From Chthonomonas calidirosea (GTDB taxonomy: Bacteria > Armatimonadota > Fimbriimonadia > Fimbriimonadales > Fimbriimonadaceae): a stretch of 63,979 bases of DNA. Below are positions 1,793 through 58,969 of this stretch, piece by piece (position 1 is the stretch's first letter; each line of letters begins with the position of its first letter). A program made the position numbers and the translations under genes. Below the pieces are notes generated by a model, which worked only from the letters and a program-made list of their open reading frames with translations, did no database searches and was not told the origin of the DNA. The stretch spans positions 1-63,979 of the forward strand of contig CAMAPH010000012.1 of assembly GCA_945859975.1 (NCBI GenBank). The letters are read 5' to 3'.

Positions 1793-3247
1793 CTAAAGTC
1801 CGCGCTGCGCCGTTTCGATCGCCGAGAGCGCGGCGCGGGCTTTGTTTTTGCTCTCGTTGTATTCGAGCGTCGGGTCGCTATCGAACACCACGCCACCACC
1901 GGCTTGTACGTACGCCATGCCGTTCTTCAGCAAAATCGTGCGCAAGGTGATGCACATGTCGAGGTCGCCGCTGTTTGAGAGGAAGCCGACCGATCCGGCG
2001 TAGCTTCCACGGCGATTCGGCTCCAGCTCGTCGATAATCTGCATTGCGCGAATCTTTGGTGCGCCAGTGACGGTGCCCGCCGGGAAGGTCGCGCGGAGCA
2101 GGTCCAGGGCGTTTTTGCCTTCTCGCAGTTCGCCGGTGACGTCCGAAACGATGTGCATGACGTGGCTGTAGCGCTCGATGACCATCAGTTCGTTCACGTG
2201 GACGGTGCCGTATTCGCAGACTCGCCCGAGGTCGTTGCGGCCTAGGTCGATCAGCATCACGTGCTCAGCGCGTTCTTTCTCGTCTCCAATCAGTTCGGCT
2301 GCCAGGGCGTCATCTTCCGCTTCCGATTTGCCGCGCCACCGGGTGCCGGCGATGGGGCGAACCCGGGCTTTCCGACCGTGCAGGCTCACGAGAATTTCTG
2401 GTGAAGCGCCGACGAGATCGAAGTCGCCGAGCCGGAGCAGGAACATATATGGCGAAGGATTGATGCTGCGCAAGGATCGATAGACGGTGAGCGGGTGTGC
2501 GGCGACGGCGGTCTGGAATCGCTGGGAGGGCACCATCTGGAAGCCGTCACCGGCCTTGATGTACTCGCGCATCGACGAGACCATCTGCTCGAAACCTTCC
2601 TGGGTCACATTCGACGCCACCGAGTTGACCGGGAACGCGCCCGCCGGCAACGCTGGAAGCGGGCCGGCTAACCGCTCAATAATCGCCTCAATCTTGGCCA
2701 CCGCGTCCTCGTATCCCGCCTCACTTCCATCAGCCTGCGAGACAATCCGAATCCGGTTCTTGGCGTGGTCGAACACTACGACGGTGTCGACGATCATCAT
2801 TGCCATGTCGGGCAGGTTCAGGTCGTCCTCCGTGCTGTCCGGCAACTTTTCGAAATATCGCACCAGGTCGTAGGCGCACATTCCCACCGCTCCGCCGGTG
2901 AAAGTCGGCAGACCTTCGACCTTGATCGGTGGCTCGGTGCCGACCGCTTCCTCCAAAAGATGTAGCGGATCTTGCCCCGGGGCCAGTTCAAACTCCCGCG
3001 TAAACGTCTTGGCTTGGCCGTTCTTCACCCGAATCAGGTCGCGCGGCAACGTGCCAATAAACGAGTACCGCGCAAGCTGCTCGCCGCCCGTAACGCTCTC
3101 GAGCAGAAAGCTATGCGGCTGATCATAGGCCAACTTCCAATAAGCGCTGACGGGCGTTTCGATGTCCGCCAGAATGTCGTGGACAACGGGCATGGCGCGA
3201 CAACCTTCGGTTTGAAGCAAATATTCGTCGCGACTCGGGAACGGCAT
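1793..3247 (-). CDS. trpE: Anthranilate synthase component I
   Basis: Motifs LLES, RSINPSPYM, RPIAGTR, KERAEHVMLIDLGRND, TFPAGTVTGAPKIRAM. Confidence 0.93.
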   Translation of the reverse strand: MPFPSRDEYLLQTEGCRAMPVVHDILADIETPVSAYWKLAYDQPHSFLLESVTGGEQLARYSFIGTLPRDLIRVKNGQAKTFTREFELAPGQDPLHLLEEAVGTEPPIKVEGLPTFTGGAVGMCAYDLVRYFEKLPDSTEDDLNLPDMAMMIVDTVVVFDHAKNRIRIVSQADGSEAGYEDAVAKIEAIIERLAGPLPALPAGAFPVNSVASNVTQEGFEQMVSSMREYIKAGDGFQMVPSQRFQTAVAAHPLTVYRSLRSINPSPYMFLLRLGDFDLVGASPEILVSLHGRKARVRPIAGTRWRGKSEAEDDALAAELIGDEKERAEHVMLIDLGRNDLGRVCEYGTVHVNELMVIERYSHVMHIVSDVTGELREGKNALDLLRATFPAGTVTGAPKIRAMQIIDELEPNRRGSYAGSVGFLSNSGDLDMCITLRTILLKNGMAYVQAGGGVVFDSDPTLEYNESKNKARAALSAIETAQRGL

Positions 3248-16740: not shown

Positions 16741-18099
16741 ATGATCGCCTTCGGATTGTTACTCGCTCTTCATGTCCCTCAAGCCCCTATCTCTGGGCAA
16801 GACCTTCCGCGTCGCGGCGCCCTCGGGTTGCCGTTCTCACCCATCCCGGCAGATGTGGTTACAAAGCTCAAGCTGAAGTCGGGTGAAGGATTGCTCGCTC
16901 GGAAGCCGGTGGCTGGACTAACCGCGGAGAAAGCCGGAGTTCAAGAGGGCGACGTTGTTCTCGCGATCAACGGTCAAACCCTGAAGCAGGCGACGGTCGG
17001 CGAATTCGTTCGATCGCTTCCGACCGGCAAGCCAGTTAAGTTCGAAGTGTTGCGAGACGCCAAGCCTGTCTCCTTGAGCGCAATGCTGCTAGAGAAGCCG
17101 CGAGACCCGGGCAATGCCAACTATGAAGTGATCTATAGCCATGTTGTGAGCAACGGAGCTCGAATGCGAACGATCATCACGAAGCCTCGAAAGCCAGGTA
17201 ATTACCCCGCATTTATGTTCATTCAGGGCTTTTCGCCGATCTCGTATGACTACGTGCTGGAGACCTCGGTTGGAGACGTGAGCTCGCTGGATGGCCCGCT
17301 GCTTTTCGACTTTGCGAACAGCGGCTTTGTGACGATTCGAGTGGAGAAGCCAGGGGTTGGCGATAGTGAAGGCGGGCCGTTTGCTCCGATGGACTACACC
17401 ACCGAGCTCGACATCTATCGGCAAACGTTGAAGCAGCTCAAGGCTCTGCCAGAGGTGGACACGAAGAATGTGTTCATCTTTGGCCACAGCATGGGAGGCG
17501 CGTTTGGCCCGATGATTGCGGCGGAGAACCCGGTGAAGGGGCTTGCCGTTTACGGCGTTGCGGCGAGAACTTGGTTTGAGTACATTCTCGACACAATTCG
17601 CTACCAGGGGCTTGTTGGAGGCGACACGTTCGAAAATGCCGATGAATCTGCCCGGGAAGGCGCTCGGTTAATGGCGCTGGTGTTCTTGGAAAACAAGAGT
17701 CCGGAAGAAGTGAAGAAGTCTCATCCTTCGCTTGCGAAGGCGGCAGATGCCTACTTCCCGGGTGGGTTGTTCAACGGAAAGTCGCTCGACTTTTGGCGTC
17801 AACTTGCGGCGACCAACTTTGCCTCGTATTGGGCGAAGCTGGACTCACACGTGTTAGCGGCCAAGGGCGAAGCCGACTTCGTGGTTTACGAAGCCGACCA
17901 CAAGCTGATTGCCGACATCATGAATCGCAAGAAGCCGGGCACCGGCAAGTTCGTCATCGCTCCGGGATCGGACCACCTCTTCCACGACTTCCCGACAGAG
18001 AAGGCGAGCATGCAGAACTTCCAGCGCGGCAAGTTCAATCCGAAATTCGGGAAGATGATGATGGAGTGGATCCGCGAAGTGATGGCGAAGGCAGACTAG
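16741..18099 (+). CDS. PDZ-domain plus alpha/beta hydrolase, exported
   Basis: AEKAGVQEGDVVLAING (PDZ); EKPGVGDSEG, GHSMGG nucleophile elbow, DHLF. Confidence 0.88.
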   Translation: MIAFGLLLALHVPQAPISGQDLPRRGALGLPFSPIPADVVTKLKLKSGEGLLARKPVAGLTAEKAGVQEGDVVLAINGQTLKQATVGEFVRSLPTGKPVKFEVLRDAKPVSLSAMLLEKPRDPGNANYEVIYSHVVSNGARMRTIITKPRKPGNYPAFMFIQGFSPISYDYVLETSVGDVSSLDGPLLFDFANSGFVTIRVEKPGVGDSEGGPFAPMDYTTELDIYRQTLKQLKALPEVDTKNVFIFGHSMGGAFGPMIAAENPVKGLAVYGVAARTWFEYILDTIRYQGLVGGDTFENADESAREGARLMALVFLENKSPEEVKKSHPSLAKAADAYFPGGLFNGKSLDFWRQLAATNFASYWAKLDSHVLAAKGEADFVVYEADHKLIADIMNRKKPGTGKFVIAPGSDHLFHDFPTEKASMQNFQRGKFNPKFGKMMMEWIREVMAKAD

Positions 18100-18584
18100 C
18101 CTGCTTCCGCTCTGGCGGCGAGCTTGGGGAACCGGTCGTAAACTTCGTCCTCTTCCCAAGCTTCGCCGGCGGGGTCGGTACCCTCCAGCGACTCGACCTC
18201 GGTGATTAGGTCTGCATTTGCCACCTGCTCATAGGCTTCGGCGGCGGCGTAGTTCAATTCTTCGTTGTCGCAGCCGTTTTTGAGATCTTTGCTGGTGACA
18301 AGTGGAGCTAGATCGTCGGGGGCAAGGACGGCTTGTTCGAAGAACTTGCGACCTTTTCCGATGACGAATGCCTTGAAGTAGTGGAAGCCATCGTCACTGC
18401 AGCCCTCGTTCAGAACATACGCTGCGCCCCAGATGTCCCAGCGATGCAGGAGATTCATCTGCTCACTGTACAGATTCGCGAAGGACTCGATTTCTTCGGC
18501 CTGTAAGGGCAGCAGTGCAGCGGTCACTTTTGCCGCGTTGCCACGGGCATCTTCGATGATTTGCCAAAACTGATCGATGGTCAT
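18096..18584 (-). CDS. DUF4240 domain protein
   Basis: MTIDQFWQIIEDAR, WGAAYVLNEGCSDDGFHYF, FPKL. Confidence 0.88.
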   Translation of the reverse strand: MTIDQFWQIIEDARGNAAKVTAALLPLQAEEIESFANLYSEQMNLLHRWDIWGAAYVLNEGCSDDGFHYFKAFVIGKGRKFFEQAVLAPDDLAPLVTSKDLKNGCDNEELNYAAAEAYEQVANADLITEVESLEGTDPAGEAWEEDEVYDRFPKLAARAEAG

Positions 18585-19067: not shown

Positions 19068-20306
19068 TTAGGCGAGAAGGCGCATCACCTTTGGATTCAC
19101 CCAGTCTTGATCGTGAAACTGCTGCCCGAACTCGAGGGCCGTTACATTTCGGTACTCGTGGGTCGATTCGTCGGCGACGAATCGGAGGCTCTTTCGCAAG
19201 GAAGCCCGGATGGACGGGTCTGCGCCATGCGTAAGAAGCAGCTCGGCGAAGCGCTCATGACCCTGGACGCCAACCCGGAATGGCTGAGAAATCACGGCGC
19301 CGAACAGGGCGGTCGGCCCACCAAAGCCGTCTTCGTCATAGCCAGAAGTGGCGTTCGGATCGCCACCATTTTTCAGAATCCAATTCGCGATTTCGAATTC
19401 GTCGTAGTCCACGCAAAGGTGAAGCAGAGTTCCGTTCGCGAGCGGTGAGCCGTGGAGGGCGAGACTGTGGTCCGTGTCGCAACCGAGTGCTAACGGAAAG
19501 ATTTCCTCGTGGGAAAACTGCTGCTTGAACAGATCTGGAGTTTTGGCGAGGTGAGCCTGCAAAAGATCAAGGCGGCCACAATGAAGCGCCATGGTTGGCG
19601 TGTCCGGAAGCGGCTCGCTTATAGATTCAAGCAAGGCGAGGCAACGATGCTTGCCATCAGCGTTTCGGCTGTAGGTTTGTAGTACCAGCGCGATGGCTAC
19701 TTTCGGATCTGGCATAGGCGCGCCGAGCTCGAGGAGTAGCGCGAGTCCGTCGGCATTGAGGGTTTCGCACGGTCCAAGGATAGAGTCTTCGGCTGGCCGC
19801 GCACCCAGTTGGTGCAGTAGGCGAGCGGTATCGAGTTGTCCGCGGAGGCAGGCTCGTTCAAATGCATGCTGCAGATCGCTCGCGCCGAGAGAATGCAGTT
19901 TTGTGATGATCTCGTTTCGGCCGAGGTTTGCGGCATAGGCCATCGGTCGCCCCCAGTTTCGTTCTGTCACCAGGGCAGGCTGTTGAAGCAAAGTTGGGTG
20001 CTTTGTTAGGAGGTCCAAGAGGGCTGGCAAGTTGTCATTCCAGATGGCATCGATCAATTGGCAGGCTTGAACGAGGCGGCTCCAACTCGGGACGCCGTAA
20101 CTTCGGGCAAGCACAACTTGGGCGTCCGAAAGCTTTGGCGCACCCTCTCGCGGTCGTGGATGGAAATGGGCAAATTCTTCCAGGGCAGTTGGGTCGCCGA
20201 TCTTGAATTGCGCGAGGAGTTCTTTGGCTTGGCGTCGAAGTTGGTCGAGGTCGGGACGGACCGGCAGGGAACGCGTTGGCGCGATGGGTTCAGGTTGAGT
20301 TGTCAT
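19068..20306 (-). CDS. Ankyrin repeat protein with N-terminal LPxRPDLDQLRRQAKELL helical domain
   Basis: Ankyrin-like units (TLLHLCV, PTALF, LLLTHGADPSI); N-terminal LSDAQVVLARSYGVPSW; GGAG SD. Confidence 0.88.
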   Translation of the reverse strand: MTTQPEPIAPTRSLPVRPDLDQLRRQAKELLAQFKIGDPTALEEFAHFHPRPREGAPKLSDAQVVLARSYGVPSWSRLVQACQLIDAIWNDNLPALLDLLTKHPTLLQQPALVTERNWGRPMAYAANLGRNEIITKLHSLGASDLQHAFERACLRGQLDTARLLHQLGARPAEDSILGPCETLNADGLALLLELGAPMPDPKVAIALVLQTYSRNADGKHRCLALLESISEPLPDTPTMALHCGRLDLLQAHLAKTPDLFKQQFSHEEIFPLALGCDTDHSLALHGSPLANGTLLHLCVDYDEFEIANWILKNGGDPNATSGYDEDGFGGPTALFGAVISQPFRVGVQGHERFAELLLTHGADPSIRASLRKSLRFVADESTHEYRNVTALEFGQQFHDQDWVNPKVMRLLA

Positions 20307-20450
20307 AACGGACTCCGTAGCTTTCGCCCGTGGTCCGCAAGCAACTGGGCAAAGGAGAATCGTTAGACTCGGCGCATATGGGTTTTCCCGAGGACGGGAA
20401 AGGATCAGGTGAACTCAGTTCTTCCCGCGGACCGGGCGCGACCTGCTCGC
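20307..20450 (-). ncRNA. Candidate structured cis-regulatory leader RNA
   Basis: Several complementary segments including an SD-sequestering hairpin; lies between a sigma70-like promoter and the ankyrin start codon. Confidence 0.6.
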
Positions 20451-20456
20451 AGAGTG

Positions 20457-20485
20457 AGTGTAGCAGGGCGGGGCGATAACGGCAA
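20457..20485 (-). promoter_or_regulatory. Sigma70-type promoter of the ankyrin leader
   Basis: TTGCCG-N17-TACACT on the minus strand. Confidence 0.7.
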
Positions 20486-20538
20486 GCGCTGACTTTGTGG
20501 GGCGAACTTTTTCAGCGCGAGAGCGTTAATGCCAATTC

Positions 20539-21009
20539 GTGAAGTTCGAGCGCTCAGAGGACTACAAGAAGTGCCTACTCATGATCTGTGTCGTGTTGTG
20601 GATACCAATCTTGTATGTCATATCTTTAGTCAGTTGCGCAAATCACAATGGGCCCAAAGCTCGTTTTCTTGCTAGCTGCATAGAAAAACAAGCCGGGCTT
20701 CCGTCGGACCAAATATCGGCTGAATGCAAGGACGTGACGGAAGCTTATCGCGAGCAAACTCTAGACTGCCCTAAGTTGAAAACACCCCGTAGGATTGCAT
20801 TTGAGTGCTTCACCAGCCCAAAAAGTCTAGATACAGTATTTGAACGTCAATTTGTGATAGAAGGTAAACAATATATCGAGTGCATCAGATTTAGCGGTTC
20901 GTCGTTGGTATCGGTATCTTGGGACGAAAACGATCTCTTCGATCCACCAATCGTGGAAGTAGAAGGTTCGGATCACTTGCAGAAGGCTAGCGAAACTCAG
21001 CGTGAGTGA
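20539..21009 (+). CDS. Hypothetical protein with N-terminal TM segment
   Basis: 156-aa ORF, lower GC, Cys-rich. Confidence 0.55.
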   Translation: MKFERSEDYKKCLLMICVVLWIPILYVISLVSCANHNGPKARFLASCIEKQAGLPSDQISAECKDVTEAYREQTLDCPKLKTPRRIAFECFTSPKSLDTVFERQFVIEGKQYIECIRFSGSSLVSVSWDENDLFDPPIVEVEGSDHLQKASETQRE

Positions 21010-21682
21010 TATCGGCGCGGAGGAACTCGCCTTTCTCGAACTTATCGTTGCCAAAATTCCAACCGACGCGAATGCGGGTTGGGATGGTGTAGCCACCGAA
21101 AGTCTTCTCAGCCTCCATCGTTCCTCCGAAGGGAAGCATCCGGAAAGCTCCGCCATCGGGATTTCCCCAGCGGTCTAGGCAAACCTGCTCAATCATTCCT
21201 GACGGATTGAGGTCCATCGCGAGTTTGGACTCAACGCTGTAACCGCGCATCCGAACGCTGACTTGTTCTTCGGCTTCTGTCCACATGAAGTTTGGGTTGC
21301 AGAATGCGGAGGGTAACAGCGTCCATTCGCAAGCCAGTCGGCCCTCGGCAGCACGCGAGACATCGGCACCGGTCAGTCCCATTACTTTGAGTAGACCGTG
21401 GAGTTTCCAGTTCATTTCACCGTGGCCATCCACGAGTTGGTCAAAGCCGCTGATGAAGGTAAATCCAATAGGCACCTTCGCTTCCCAGACAAAGCCGTGC
21501 CCAATCCGAATGACTTGTCGAGCGGTGAACGGTCGCCACTTGCCTAGCTTGATGACTCCTACCATTTGTAATTGAACCGAAGTAGCTAGCGGAGTCCCGT
21601 CGGCAATGGCATGACCTAGGTAGCGACGGGCCAGGGGCGGAAGGGAGGGGTATTCGTCTAGATGGAAGGGAATGCTCTCCAT
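20987..21682 (-). CDS. DUF6544-like protein
   Basis: LPPLARRYL, WRPFTARQ, GFVWEAK, LLPSA, RWGNPD, GYTIPT; start 21682 or 21721. Confidence 0.8.
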   Translation of the reverse strand: MESIPFHLDEYPSLPPLARRYLGHAIADGTPLATSVQLQMVGVIKLGKWRPFTARQVIRIGHGFVWEAKVPIGFTFISGFDQLVDGHGEMNWKLHGLLKVMGLTGADVSRAAEGRLACEWTLLPSAFCNPNFMWTEAEEQVSVRMRGYSVESKLAMDLNPSGMIEQVCLDRWGNPDGGAFRMLPFGGTMEAEKTFGGYTIPTRIRVGWNFGNDKFEKGEFLRADITHAEFR

Positions 21683-21850
21683 TTCTGGAGGTCGACAAAG
21701 CAAATCAAATTGTGATGACACCTTTTGAATCGTGCATCACAAAAGTCAAGGCGAACGGAAAAGTAGGTCTAATCTTGCCGAAATACACTTCATTGCGACT
21801 CTTTTGGTGCTCTTAGGAGCAAGATTGCATGCCTGGGTAACCTGAAAGTC

Positions 21851-58893: not shown

Positions 58894-58969
58894 TGGTACT
58901 CCGGACGGGATTCGAACCCGCGACCTTCGCCGTGAGAGGGCGATGTCCTAACCACTAGACGACCGGAGC
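58894..58969 (-). tRNA. tRNA-Glu (anticodon CTC)
   Basis: 76-nt cloverleaf GCTCCGG...TCGCC-CTCTCAC-GGCGA...GGTTCGAATCC...CCGGAGT-ACCA with encoded CCA. Confidence 0.97.

Follow-up and report, generated by a model that had tools for sequence, protein, structure and literature searches.

The question raised by this locus is what kind of element precedes an ankyrin-repeat gene of Chthonomonas calidirosea, and how it might act on that gene. The window considered here is the whole stretch of 63,979 nucleotides that was analysed (GenBank assembly GCA_945859975.1, contig CAMAPH010000012.1), and the gene is a minus-strand open reading frame (ORF) at 19068-20306, with its ATG start codon at 20304-20306, whose 412-aa product consists of an N-terminal domain (N-domain) followed by ankyrin repeats. 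A first-pass annotation, made from the sequence alone, had described the region directly upstream as an unrecognised, riboswitch-like leader RNA that buries the Shine-Dalgarno (SD) sequence. Our analysis bears out this description, as the leader matches no Rfam family and has a covarying structure in which the SD is paired in a helix, P3. The leader occupies positions 20307-20450 of the minus strand, from the predicted transcription start site (TSS, about 20450) up to the nucleotide that precedes the ATG, and comparison across genomes indicates that it is almost certainly a real cis-acting structured RNA.

Structure and covariation of the leader RNA

All four pairings proposed in the first-pass annotation are present, in place, in the minus-strand sequence, and a chance origin of these pairings is countered by the comparison with related sequences. 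The predicted fold that this comparison shows has two domains. The 5' domain consists of two hairpins, P1 and P2, and a pseudoknot, PK-A, and carries the conserved single strand CC-GGUCCGC-GGRAA. In the window, P1 (20438-20450), seen in the sequence and in the family alignment, pairs GCGA (20450-20447) with TCGC (20441-20438) across the loop GCAGG, and P2 is the covarying hairpin GAAC-TGA-GTTC (20411-20421); both stems had been missed by the earlier annotation. PK-A joins CAGG within the P1 loop (20442-20445) to CCTG immediately 3' of P2 (20406-20409). These strands had already been proposed to pair, and they now appear as a second pseudoknot with compensatory changes in relatives. The conserved single strand includes GGTCCGC (20427-20433) and the unpaired purines GGGAA (20422-20426; family consensus GGRAA), the latter near-invariant in three family alignments.

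The 3' domain lies past a linker of variable length. Here an anti-SD strand of the CCUUU type pairs with the SD to form P3, which encloses P4, and the P4 loop GCGGACC is predicted to dock on the GGUCCGC of the 5' domain, forming a long-range pseudoknot, PK-B. In the window, the 5' strand of P3 is the anti-SD CTCCTTT (20351-20357) and its 3' strand (20313-20325) includes the SD GGAG (20316-20313); the strands of P4 are GCCC (20347-20350) and GGGC (20326-20329), and GCGGACC lies within the P4 loop at 20332-20338. Because the long linker broke the model alignment, P3 and P4 of the window itself rest on homology and constrained folding; P3 and P4 of the family covary, as do the two strands of PK-B. 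The helix previously proposed to bury the SD, CTCCTTTGCCC (20357-20347) with GGGC...GGAG (20329-20313), covers the SD GGAG and corresponds to P3/P4, in which compensatory changes among 81 distinct relatives preserve the pairing. Since the sole conserved fold has the SD paired in P3, the ribosome-binding site would be buried.

The two remaining pairings stood in part. A hairpin at 20384-20401 is indeed present, but it occurs only in the window and in a near-identical ortholog from another species of the same genus (G014), so that it is a lineage-specific part of the variable linker and not a member of the family fold. The last pairing had been given two possible roles, and its kissing or pseudoknot core, GGTCCGC (20433-20427) with GCGGACC (20338-20332), covaries as PK-B, but its replacement of the SD-burying helix came without covariation.

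A blastn search of the upstream spacer against 40 related genomes showed that a block of ~45 nt (window 20450-20405) recurs ~100 nt before genes whose products share only their first ~80 residues with the window protein. By eye, 39 distinct upstream regions follow one common layout. RNAalifold, applied to an unguided MAFFT alignment of 32 leaders, returned P1, P2 and GGUCCGC:GCGGACC, with compensatory changes in 12 of the 18 predicted pairs. When the 3' parts were folded alone, P3 enclosing P4, with GCGGACC in the P4 loop, was obtained for nearly all of 36 sequences, one of which (L006) was mis-anchored. We then used a covariance model, R1, built from 15 sequences, in which P1-P4 were included and both pseudoknots left out; an alignment of 101 matches to it, 81 of them distinct, is the basis of the pairing statistics.

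Covariation among these homologs was strong. Double changes, affecting both sides, were found in 28 of 31 pairs, and the covariation score was 0.408, compared with 0.167 for shuffled alignments and 0.04-0.07 for slid-partner controls. In the 81 distinct sequences 94.9% of the cells were paired versus 81.8% after shuffling, a level reached by 0 of 500 shuffles; the corresponding values were 99.7% for P2 and 96.5% for P4, and these percentages for P1-P4 are inflated as the alignment was fitted to the model, which leaves PK-A and PK-B unaffected. Double changes were present at all five pairs of P1, all four pairs of P2 and 5/5 pairs of P4. P3 contains many U-G and G-U pairs, which are mismatches on the opposite strand, and the signal therefore lies at the RNA level and on this strand; a swapped-partner energy test on P3 gave -12.1 versus -8.3 kcal/mol. 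PK-B, although outside the model, was paired in 98% of the cells and had compensatory changes at 4 of 7 pairs (GC to AU in 14 sequences, CG to UA in 15). Further support came from PK-A, with 80.4% pairing versus 61.1% shuffled and a covariation score of 0.517 versus 0.200 (0/500 shuffles). An alignment-free test of 149 sequences gave a mean longest PK-A helix of 4.28 bp, against 3.32 +/- 0.06 for swapped partners, with 85 distinct helix sequences. Slid-partner controls collapsed for the R1 helices and for PK-A.

Across the family the RNA is compact (125-145 nt) and carries the signature GGUCCGCGG...GCGGACC. In the commonest variant of P3 three wobble pairs in succession join the SD to a U-rich strand, and another variant is almost wholly Watson-Crick (CCUUCUUUC with GAAAGGAGG). 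The 3' helix always includes the SD of the adjoining gene, and the end of the R1 model is the start codon of that gene.

Besides the inflated pairing percentages, two results weigh against this view of the window leader. Its minimum free energy of -54.2 kcal/mol was unexceptional next to that of shuffled sequences (-48.7 +/- 4.1 kcal/mol, z -1.33, 21/200 at least as stable), and R1 aligned only its 5' half, at 33.6 bits. Two candidate alternative helices were rejected as well. A 5-bp extension of the GGTCCGC pairing that would replace the SD-burying helix was paired in 47.7% versus 47.5% of shuffled cases, and 71 of 500 shuffles reached its score. There was no signal for an anti-anti-SD helix in which GGRAAGG, from the junction and the 5' strand of P2, would pair with the anti-SD: we obtained -5.93 kcal/mol, versus -6.08 +/- 0.14 kcal/mol for swapped partners.

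Distribution and link to the N-terminal domain

We searched for R1 in genome samples that are draws rather than censuses. Within the genus the model was found in 35 of 46 genomes, with 1-7 copies each; it also matched 64/151 genomes of an order sample (family f1 60/97, f2 1/3, f3 0/1, f4 2/29 and f5 0/20) and 33/151 genomes of a phylum sample. The window's own genome has two copies, the window leader and one on another contig (G000:C25:13309-13439). The latter (plus strand; L062/L027) is a canonical copy of 82 bits that lies before the gene for a 475-aa paralog with the N-domain and ankyrin repeats. Two genomes from a different family of this phylum have paired leaders, in the same orientation and ~1.4 kb apart (L106:192-319 and 1615-1743; L107:78-205 and 1501-1629), and these pairs belong to tandem paralogous genes with one leader each.

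An exact pattern scan of one-genome-per-species contigs gave at least 120 stretches, of which 80 loci were taken to R1. Among the matches listed, 73 of these 80 were positive, with full-length matches of up to 108 bits; when the genus search is included, full-length matches reached 117 bits. As labelled in the database records, the 73 loci span at least ten phyla: 19 are from Actinomycetota, 16 from Pseudomonadota (Lysobacterales, Caulobacteraceae, Rhizobiales and Aquabacterium), 11 from Acidobacteriota, eight each from Armatimonadota (Fimbriimonadales) and Gemmatimonadota, six from Verrucomicrobiota, two from Planctomycetota, and one each from Cyanobacteria, Eremiobacterota and Ca. Eisenbacteria. 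The cross-phylum set has the same P1, P2, P3, P4 and PK-A as the family; it is uninformative on PK-B covariation, because the pattern itself fixed PK-B. Seven pattern matches gave no R1 match (L125, L133, L138, L141, L172, L184 and L199); they also lack the N-domain, and we treated them as chance or truncated loci. A scan of viral contigs with the same pattern gave 0 matches.

The idea of an RNA-plus-protein system, raised in the first-pass annotation, gained weight from these loci, with the qualification that the partner is the N-terminal domain and not the ankyrin repeats as such. Loci fetched through a match to the protein N-terminus alone had the RNA in 29/29 cases. Among the R1-positive cross-phylum loci, the N-domain lies directly 3' of the RNA in 72 of 73; at the 73rd the contig ends after 15 codons, with a reading that is already domain-like. 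The N-domain alignment of these 72 loci starts between -2 and +58 nt relative to the end of the R1 model, with one at +192. Five distant whole genomes (Mesorhizobium, Dokdonella, Jiangella, Rugosimonospora and Dyella) had six RNA and six domain matches, which formed six adjacent pairs with none unpaired.

What follows the domain varies. Among 27 proteins, the tails were ankyrin repeats in 22 and two TIGR03067 domains in five; other tails were leucine-rich repeats (LRR), LRR plus ankyrin, ClpS+DUF2442, Clp_N, Lon substrate-binding+FHA+GGDEF, and DUF6263. Since one RNA-domain pairing persists across such varied tails, the RNA is tied to the domain and not to the ankyrin repeats. The protease-adaptor modules among the tails are a hint that the N-domain may act in targeted proteolysis.

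The N-domain itself comprises ~80 residues, is helical, and has the consensus LP.RP.L..L..QAK.LL ... L.DAQ.V.AREYGF.SW..L, with 30-40% identity across ten phyla. In 235 of 238 proteins its start falls inside the first 20 residues, and a second tandem copy is frequent. AlphaFold2 predicted four helices (pLDDT 82). A search of Pfam and NCBIfam gave nothing significant; the sub-threshold Pfam matches, to OST-HTH/LOTUS (E 0.07-0.25) and the N-terminal part of Glyoxalase_8 (E 0.086), are leads only. The best hits of a PDB profile search were unrelated proteins (E 0.022), the ESM Atlas gave nothing above 0.76 for the domain, and PADLOC returned a single marginal match, in the ankyrin region. The domain, found in proteins P0124-P0241 among the carriers, seems to warrant a separate family.

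Promoter, selection and surrounding genes

A promoter followed by a 5' untranslated region of ~145 nt had also been proposed for the ankyrin gene. Both of its hexamers are present on the minus strand: a -35-like TTGCCG at 20480-20485, whose TTG shows only slight enrichment at this offset among relatives, and a -10 box, TACACT, at 20457-20462. Of 148 distinct upstream regions from many phyla, 132 have a TANNNT hexamer whose first base lies 6-9 nt ahead of model position 1. Given this fixed offset, transcription should begin at the base of P1 (about 20450 in the window), which puts the predicted TSS ~144 nt before the ATG rather than near the start codon. A strict sigma-70 scan called no promoter in the leader region, so that we accepted the -10 box on purely comparative grounds. 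Reading the conserved block as an extracytoplasmic function (ECF)-type or sigma-54 promoter was also considered; by eye the GAAC-to-CGTC spacing of 21 nt is too long, and this reading was abandoned once covariation emerged.

Comparison with the G014 ortholog separates the leader from its surroundings. Homology begins at 20451, and the leaders are identical at 144/144 bases. The ankyrin coding sequences differ at 81 of 1239 nt, including 54 third codon positions, and in the 110 nt upstream of the leader 77 positions differ. Given this divergence the promoter has been replaced, and since the leader nevertheless remained identical, it is selected in its own right. Repeat arrays stand directly before the leader promoter at two other loci: L008 (about 1880-2022, minus strand) has a long tandem TTTCAGC heptamer array followed by four TGACGGC units, and at L019 the corresponding position ahead of the -10 box is taken up by four CTTCCGC units. 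Such heptamer arrays could be a means of phase-variable promoter spacing.

The 412-aa product belongs to the ankyrin-repeat proteins by Pfam gathering scores (Ank 35.6 bits versus a cutoff of 21.1; Ank_2 32.6 versus 27.3). Its best Ank and Ank_2 stretches lie inside residues 267-367, and Ank_4 scored below cutoff at 151-171. Pfam placed no family in the first ~90 residues, with ankyrin only past residue ~150; the shared N-terminal domain, delimited by protein comparison to about residues 8-90 (P0001), is encoded by 20037-20285. The spacer upstream of the gene measures 232 nt and is common with a divergent plus-strand ORF that starts at 20539 or 20581 and ends at 21009. The product of this ORF matches no Pfam family and has a lipoprotein-like look, with a hydrophobic N-terminus and then a Cys; its 3' end overlaps a convergent DUF6920/DUF6544 gene (20987-21721, minus strand) by 23 nt. 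Past the 3' end of the ankyrin gene, and likewise on the minus strand, lies a gene for a DUF4240 protein (18096-18584). A terminator scan listed none between the RNA and the ankyrin gene; its single match (20647-20665, plus strand) is outside that stretch.

Known systems, mechanism and rival explanations

The statement that the leader belongs to no recognised riboswitch class was borne out by cmscan against the 4227 models of Rfam 15, with the family gathering threshold as criterion. For the whole window the sole match was a tRNA (58897-58969, minus strand). At E<=10 the region 20200-20650 gave only HIV-1_SL4, on the opposite strand and at 16.1 bits versus a threshold of 31. Seven canonical loci gave no match at E<=1, and twenty cross-phylum loci gave only Ms_IGR-4, outside the motif and at 28.3 bits versus 55. 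In the literature, we found no description linking ankyrin or TIGR03067 genes with riboswitch candidates or structured noncoding RNA. The word 'ankyrin' is absent from the main texts of PMC5737381, PMC8632094, PMC11109978 and PMC2864571 and from four supplementary files of PMC2864571, a count that stops short of the PMC5737381 supplements, which possibly list motifs by gene context. The leader family looks like an undescribed gene-control system, with an earlier report under another name possible.

The leader belongs to none of the known systems with which we compared it, as no Rfam family matches; it does share features with several. In the ZTP (pfl) riboswitch a variable linker separates the 5' sub-domain from the 3' hairpin sub-domain, and a long-range pseudoknot joins the two. 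Our leader is likewise bipartite, with a variable linker and a long-range pseudoknot between its sub-domains, but its conserved bases are different, its 5' domain contains the second pseudoknot PK-A, its docking strand is the apical loop of the SD-sequestering hairpin, and its gene context is one protein domain instead of purine and folate genes. SAM-II/SAM-V, preQ1-II/III, NAD+-II and guanidine-III are SD-sequestering pseudoknot riboswitches that control translation without a terminator. The leader resembles them in having the ribosome-binding site within the conserved fold and no terminator; it differs in its much larger size (125-145 nt, with four helices and two pseudoknots) and in that the SD lies in an ordinary local helix, P3, and not in a pseudoknot. 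Structured leaders before the gene of one protein family, such as ribosomal-protein leaders and the rne 5' untranslated region, are the usual signature of feedback from the encoded protein. The present leader, too, is confined to the genes of one protein family (29/29, 72/73 and 6/6); unlike those leaders, its candidate partner is an unnamed N-terminal domain without a known RNA-binding fold, and the association spans ten phyla and different C-terminal architectures. Table 1 of PMC2864571 includes a further autogenous leader for comparison, Actino-pnp.

We consider it very likely that the leader acts through SD sequestration, and a translational OFF switch is its most likely function. In this mechanism the docked double-pseudoknot fold would be the OFF state, with the SD hidden in P3, and protein output would be set by a factor acting in trans that makes this docked form more stable. 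The factor could be the N-domain of the encoded protein, which would amount to autogenous feedback, perhaps co-translational in cis. Because RNA and domain strictly co-occur whatever tail follows, and because the domain emerges first, we tentatively favour the N-domain over a metabolite as the effector. Several observations weigh against this preference. No recognised RNA-binding family or fold was found in the N-domain, for which Foldseek against the PDB gave nothing below E 1 and the VIA wide search a best Z of 3.9. The N-domain proteins are only moderately basic (median isoelectric point 9.4, range 5.2-11.8). A double pseudoknot with invariant junction bases in many phyla, moreover, has the typical look of a metabolite riboswitch. 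Against the switch mechanism as a whole, helix tests of two candidates revealed no conserved alternative (ON) structure.

A metabolite or ion riboswitch is the main rival, one that we rate as possible though on the unlikely side. A ligand at the junction CC-GGUCCGC-GGRAA would then lock the SD-sequestering fold, and the N-domain proteins would take part in one ligand-linked process. Two features expected of a riboswitch are present in the leader, namely a conserved structured domain with covariation that could serve as aptamer, two covarying pseudoknots and near-invariant unpaired bases included, and a coupled expression platform, in which the SD lies in P3 and is part of the conserved fold, a placement shared with translational OFF riboswitches, and the P4 loop docks on the 5' domain. 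Riboswitch classes, on the other hand, usually govern several unrelated families and leave many homologs uncontrolled, whereas this RNA is associated, in both directions, with one protein domain; among the downstream genes seen there was none for transport or biosynthesis, and the ANK, LRR, TIGR03067 and ClpS partner domains suggest no ligand. The 'sophisticated RNA' criteria quoted in PMC5737381 do fit the complexity of the leader and its spread over ten phyla.

The leader might also sense no specific molecule and be a thermometer, a translation throttle, or an element of mRNA stability or localisation that simply travels with the promoter and first domain during gene duplication and shuffling, which we regard as rather improbable. 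RNA thermometers such as ROSE and fourU are simple SD-masking hairpins, and heat-labile SD helices show U-rich wobble pairing similar to that of the commonest P3, with its U-rich strand on the SD and several G-U pairs. No alternative conformer is conserved, and a joint inheritance of promoter, leader and N-domain coding sequence as a single unit is conceivable. But two long-range covarying pseudoknots and an invariant junction exceed the needs of a thermometer, there is no link to heat-shock genes, so that the leader does not fit that class, and the other P3 variant is almost wholly Watson-Crick. Co-inheritance alone would fail over ten phyla at 30-40% domain identity, and in G014 the leader stayed identical at 144/144 bases although the promoter was replaced. 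That the RNA starts at the predicted TSS and is compact would also suit a self-cleaving ribozyme or a trans-acting small RNA, and hepatitis delta virus (HDV)-like ribozymes too have nested double pseudoknots. This reading is nevertheless highly improbable: no Rfam ribozyme or small RNA family appeared even at E<=1 to 10, the 3' helix always holds the SD of the adjoining gene, with the model ending on its start codon, and no terminator-like site was listed between RNA and gene. The least credible explanation is that the region holds no functional RNA, being a DNA-level signal (an operator or the end of a mobile element) or a product of chance. The thermodynamically unexceptional window leader and the position in a divergent intergenic spacer would agree with it; the compensatory changes in 28/31 pairs, the strand-specific G-U pairs, the collapse of the slid-partner controls, the full-length matches of up to 117 bits and the viral contigs devoid of the pattern all speak against it.

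Returning to the N-domain as effector, a bolder form of this idea, which we put forward as a possibility more doubtful than the effector role itself, is that leader and N-domain are the two halves of one obligate RNA-protein module, in which the nascent N-domain binds its own leader. If so, this binding would either stop further translation, as cis-preferential autogenous control, or give a lasting ribonucleoprotein. A constant 'head' would then be combined with variable 'tails' (ankyrin, LRR, lipocalin-like TIGR03067, ClpS, Clp_N and the Lon substrate-binding domain) that choose the targets, in at least ten phyla. F-box proteins similarly have a short constant helical N-terminal module with interchangeable binding modules. 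As a protein analogy only, the N-domain proteins are like them in placing LRR, ankyrin or other modules after a constant N-terminal module; they differ in being bacterial and in that the family and fold searches found no sequence or fold similarity. The module would thus be a bacterial counterpart of F-box-type modular adaptors in logic, not in ancestry, with RNA built in.

It has become rare to find a new class of structured RNA that occurs across many phyla, and the leader represents either a riboswitch of the orphan kind or a novel regulatory pair of RNA and protein. Motif searches based on gene families can overlook RNAs whose partner domain has no Pfam model. An RNA of ~130 nt and a domain of ~80 aa, strictly coupled in both directions, form a testable, easily made unit, and this unit opens a way into the uncharacterised bacterial ankyrin, LRR and TIGR03067 proteins, which make up a large family.

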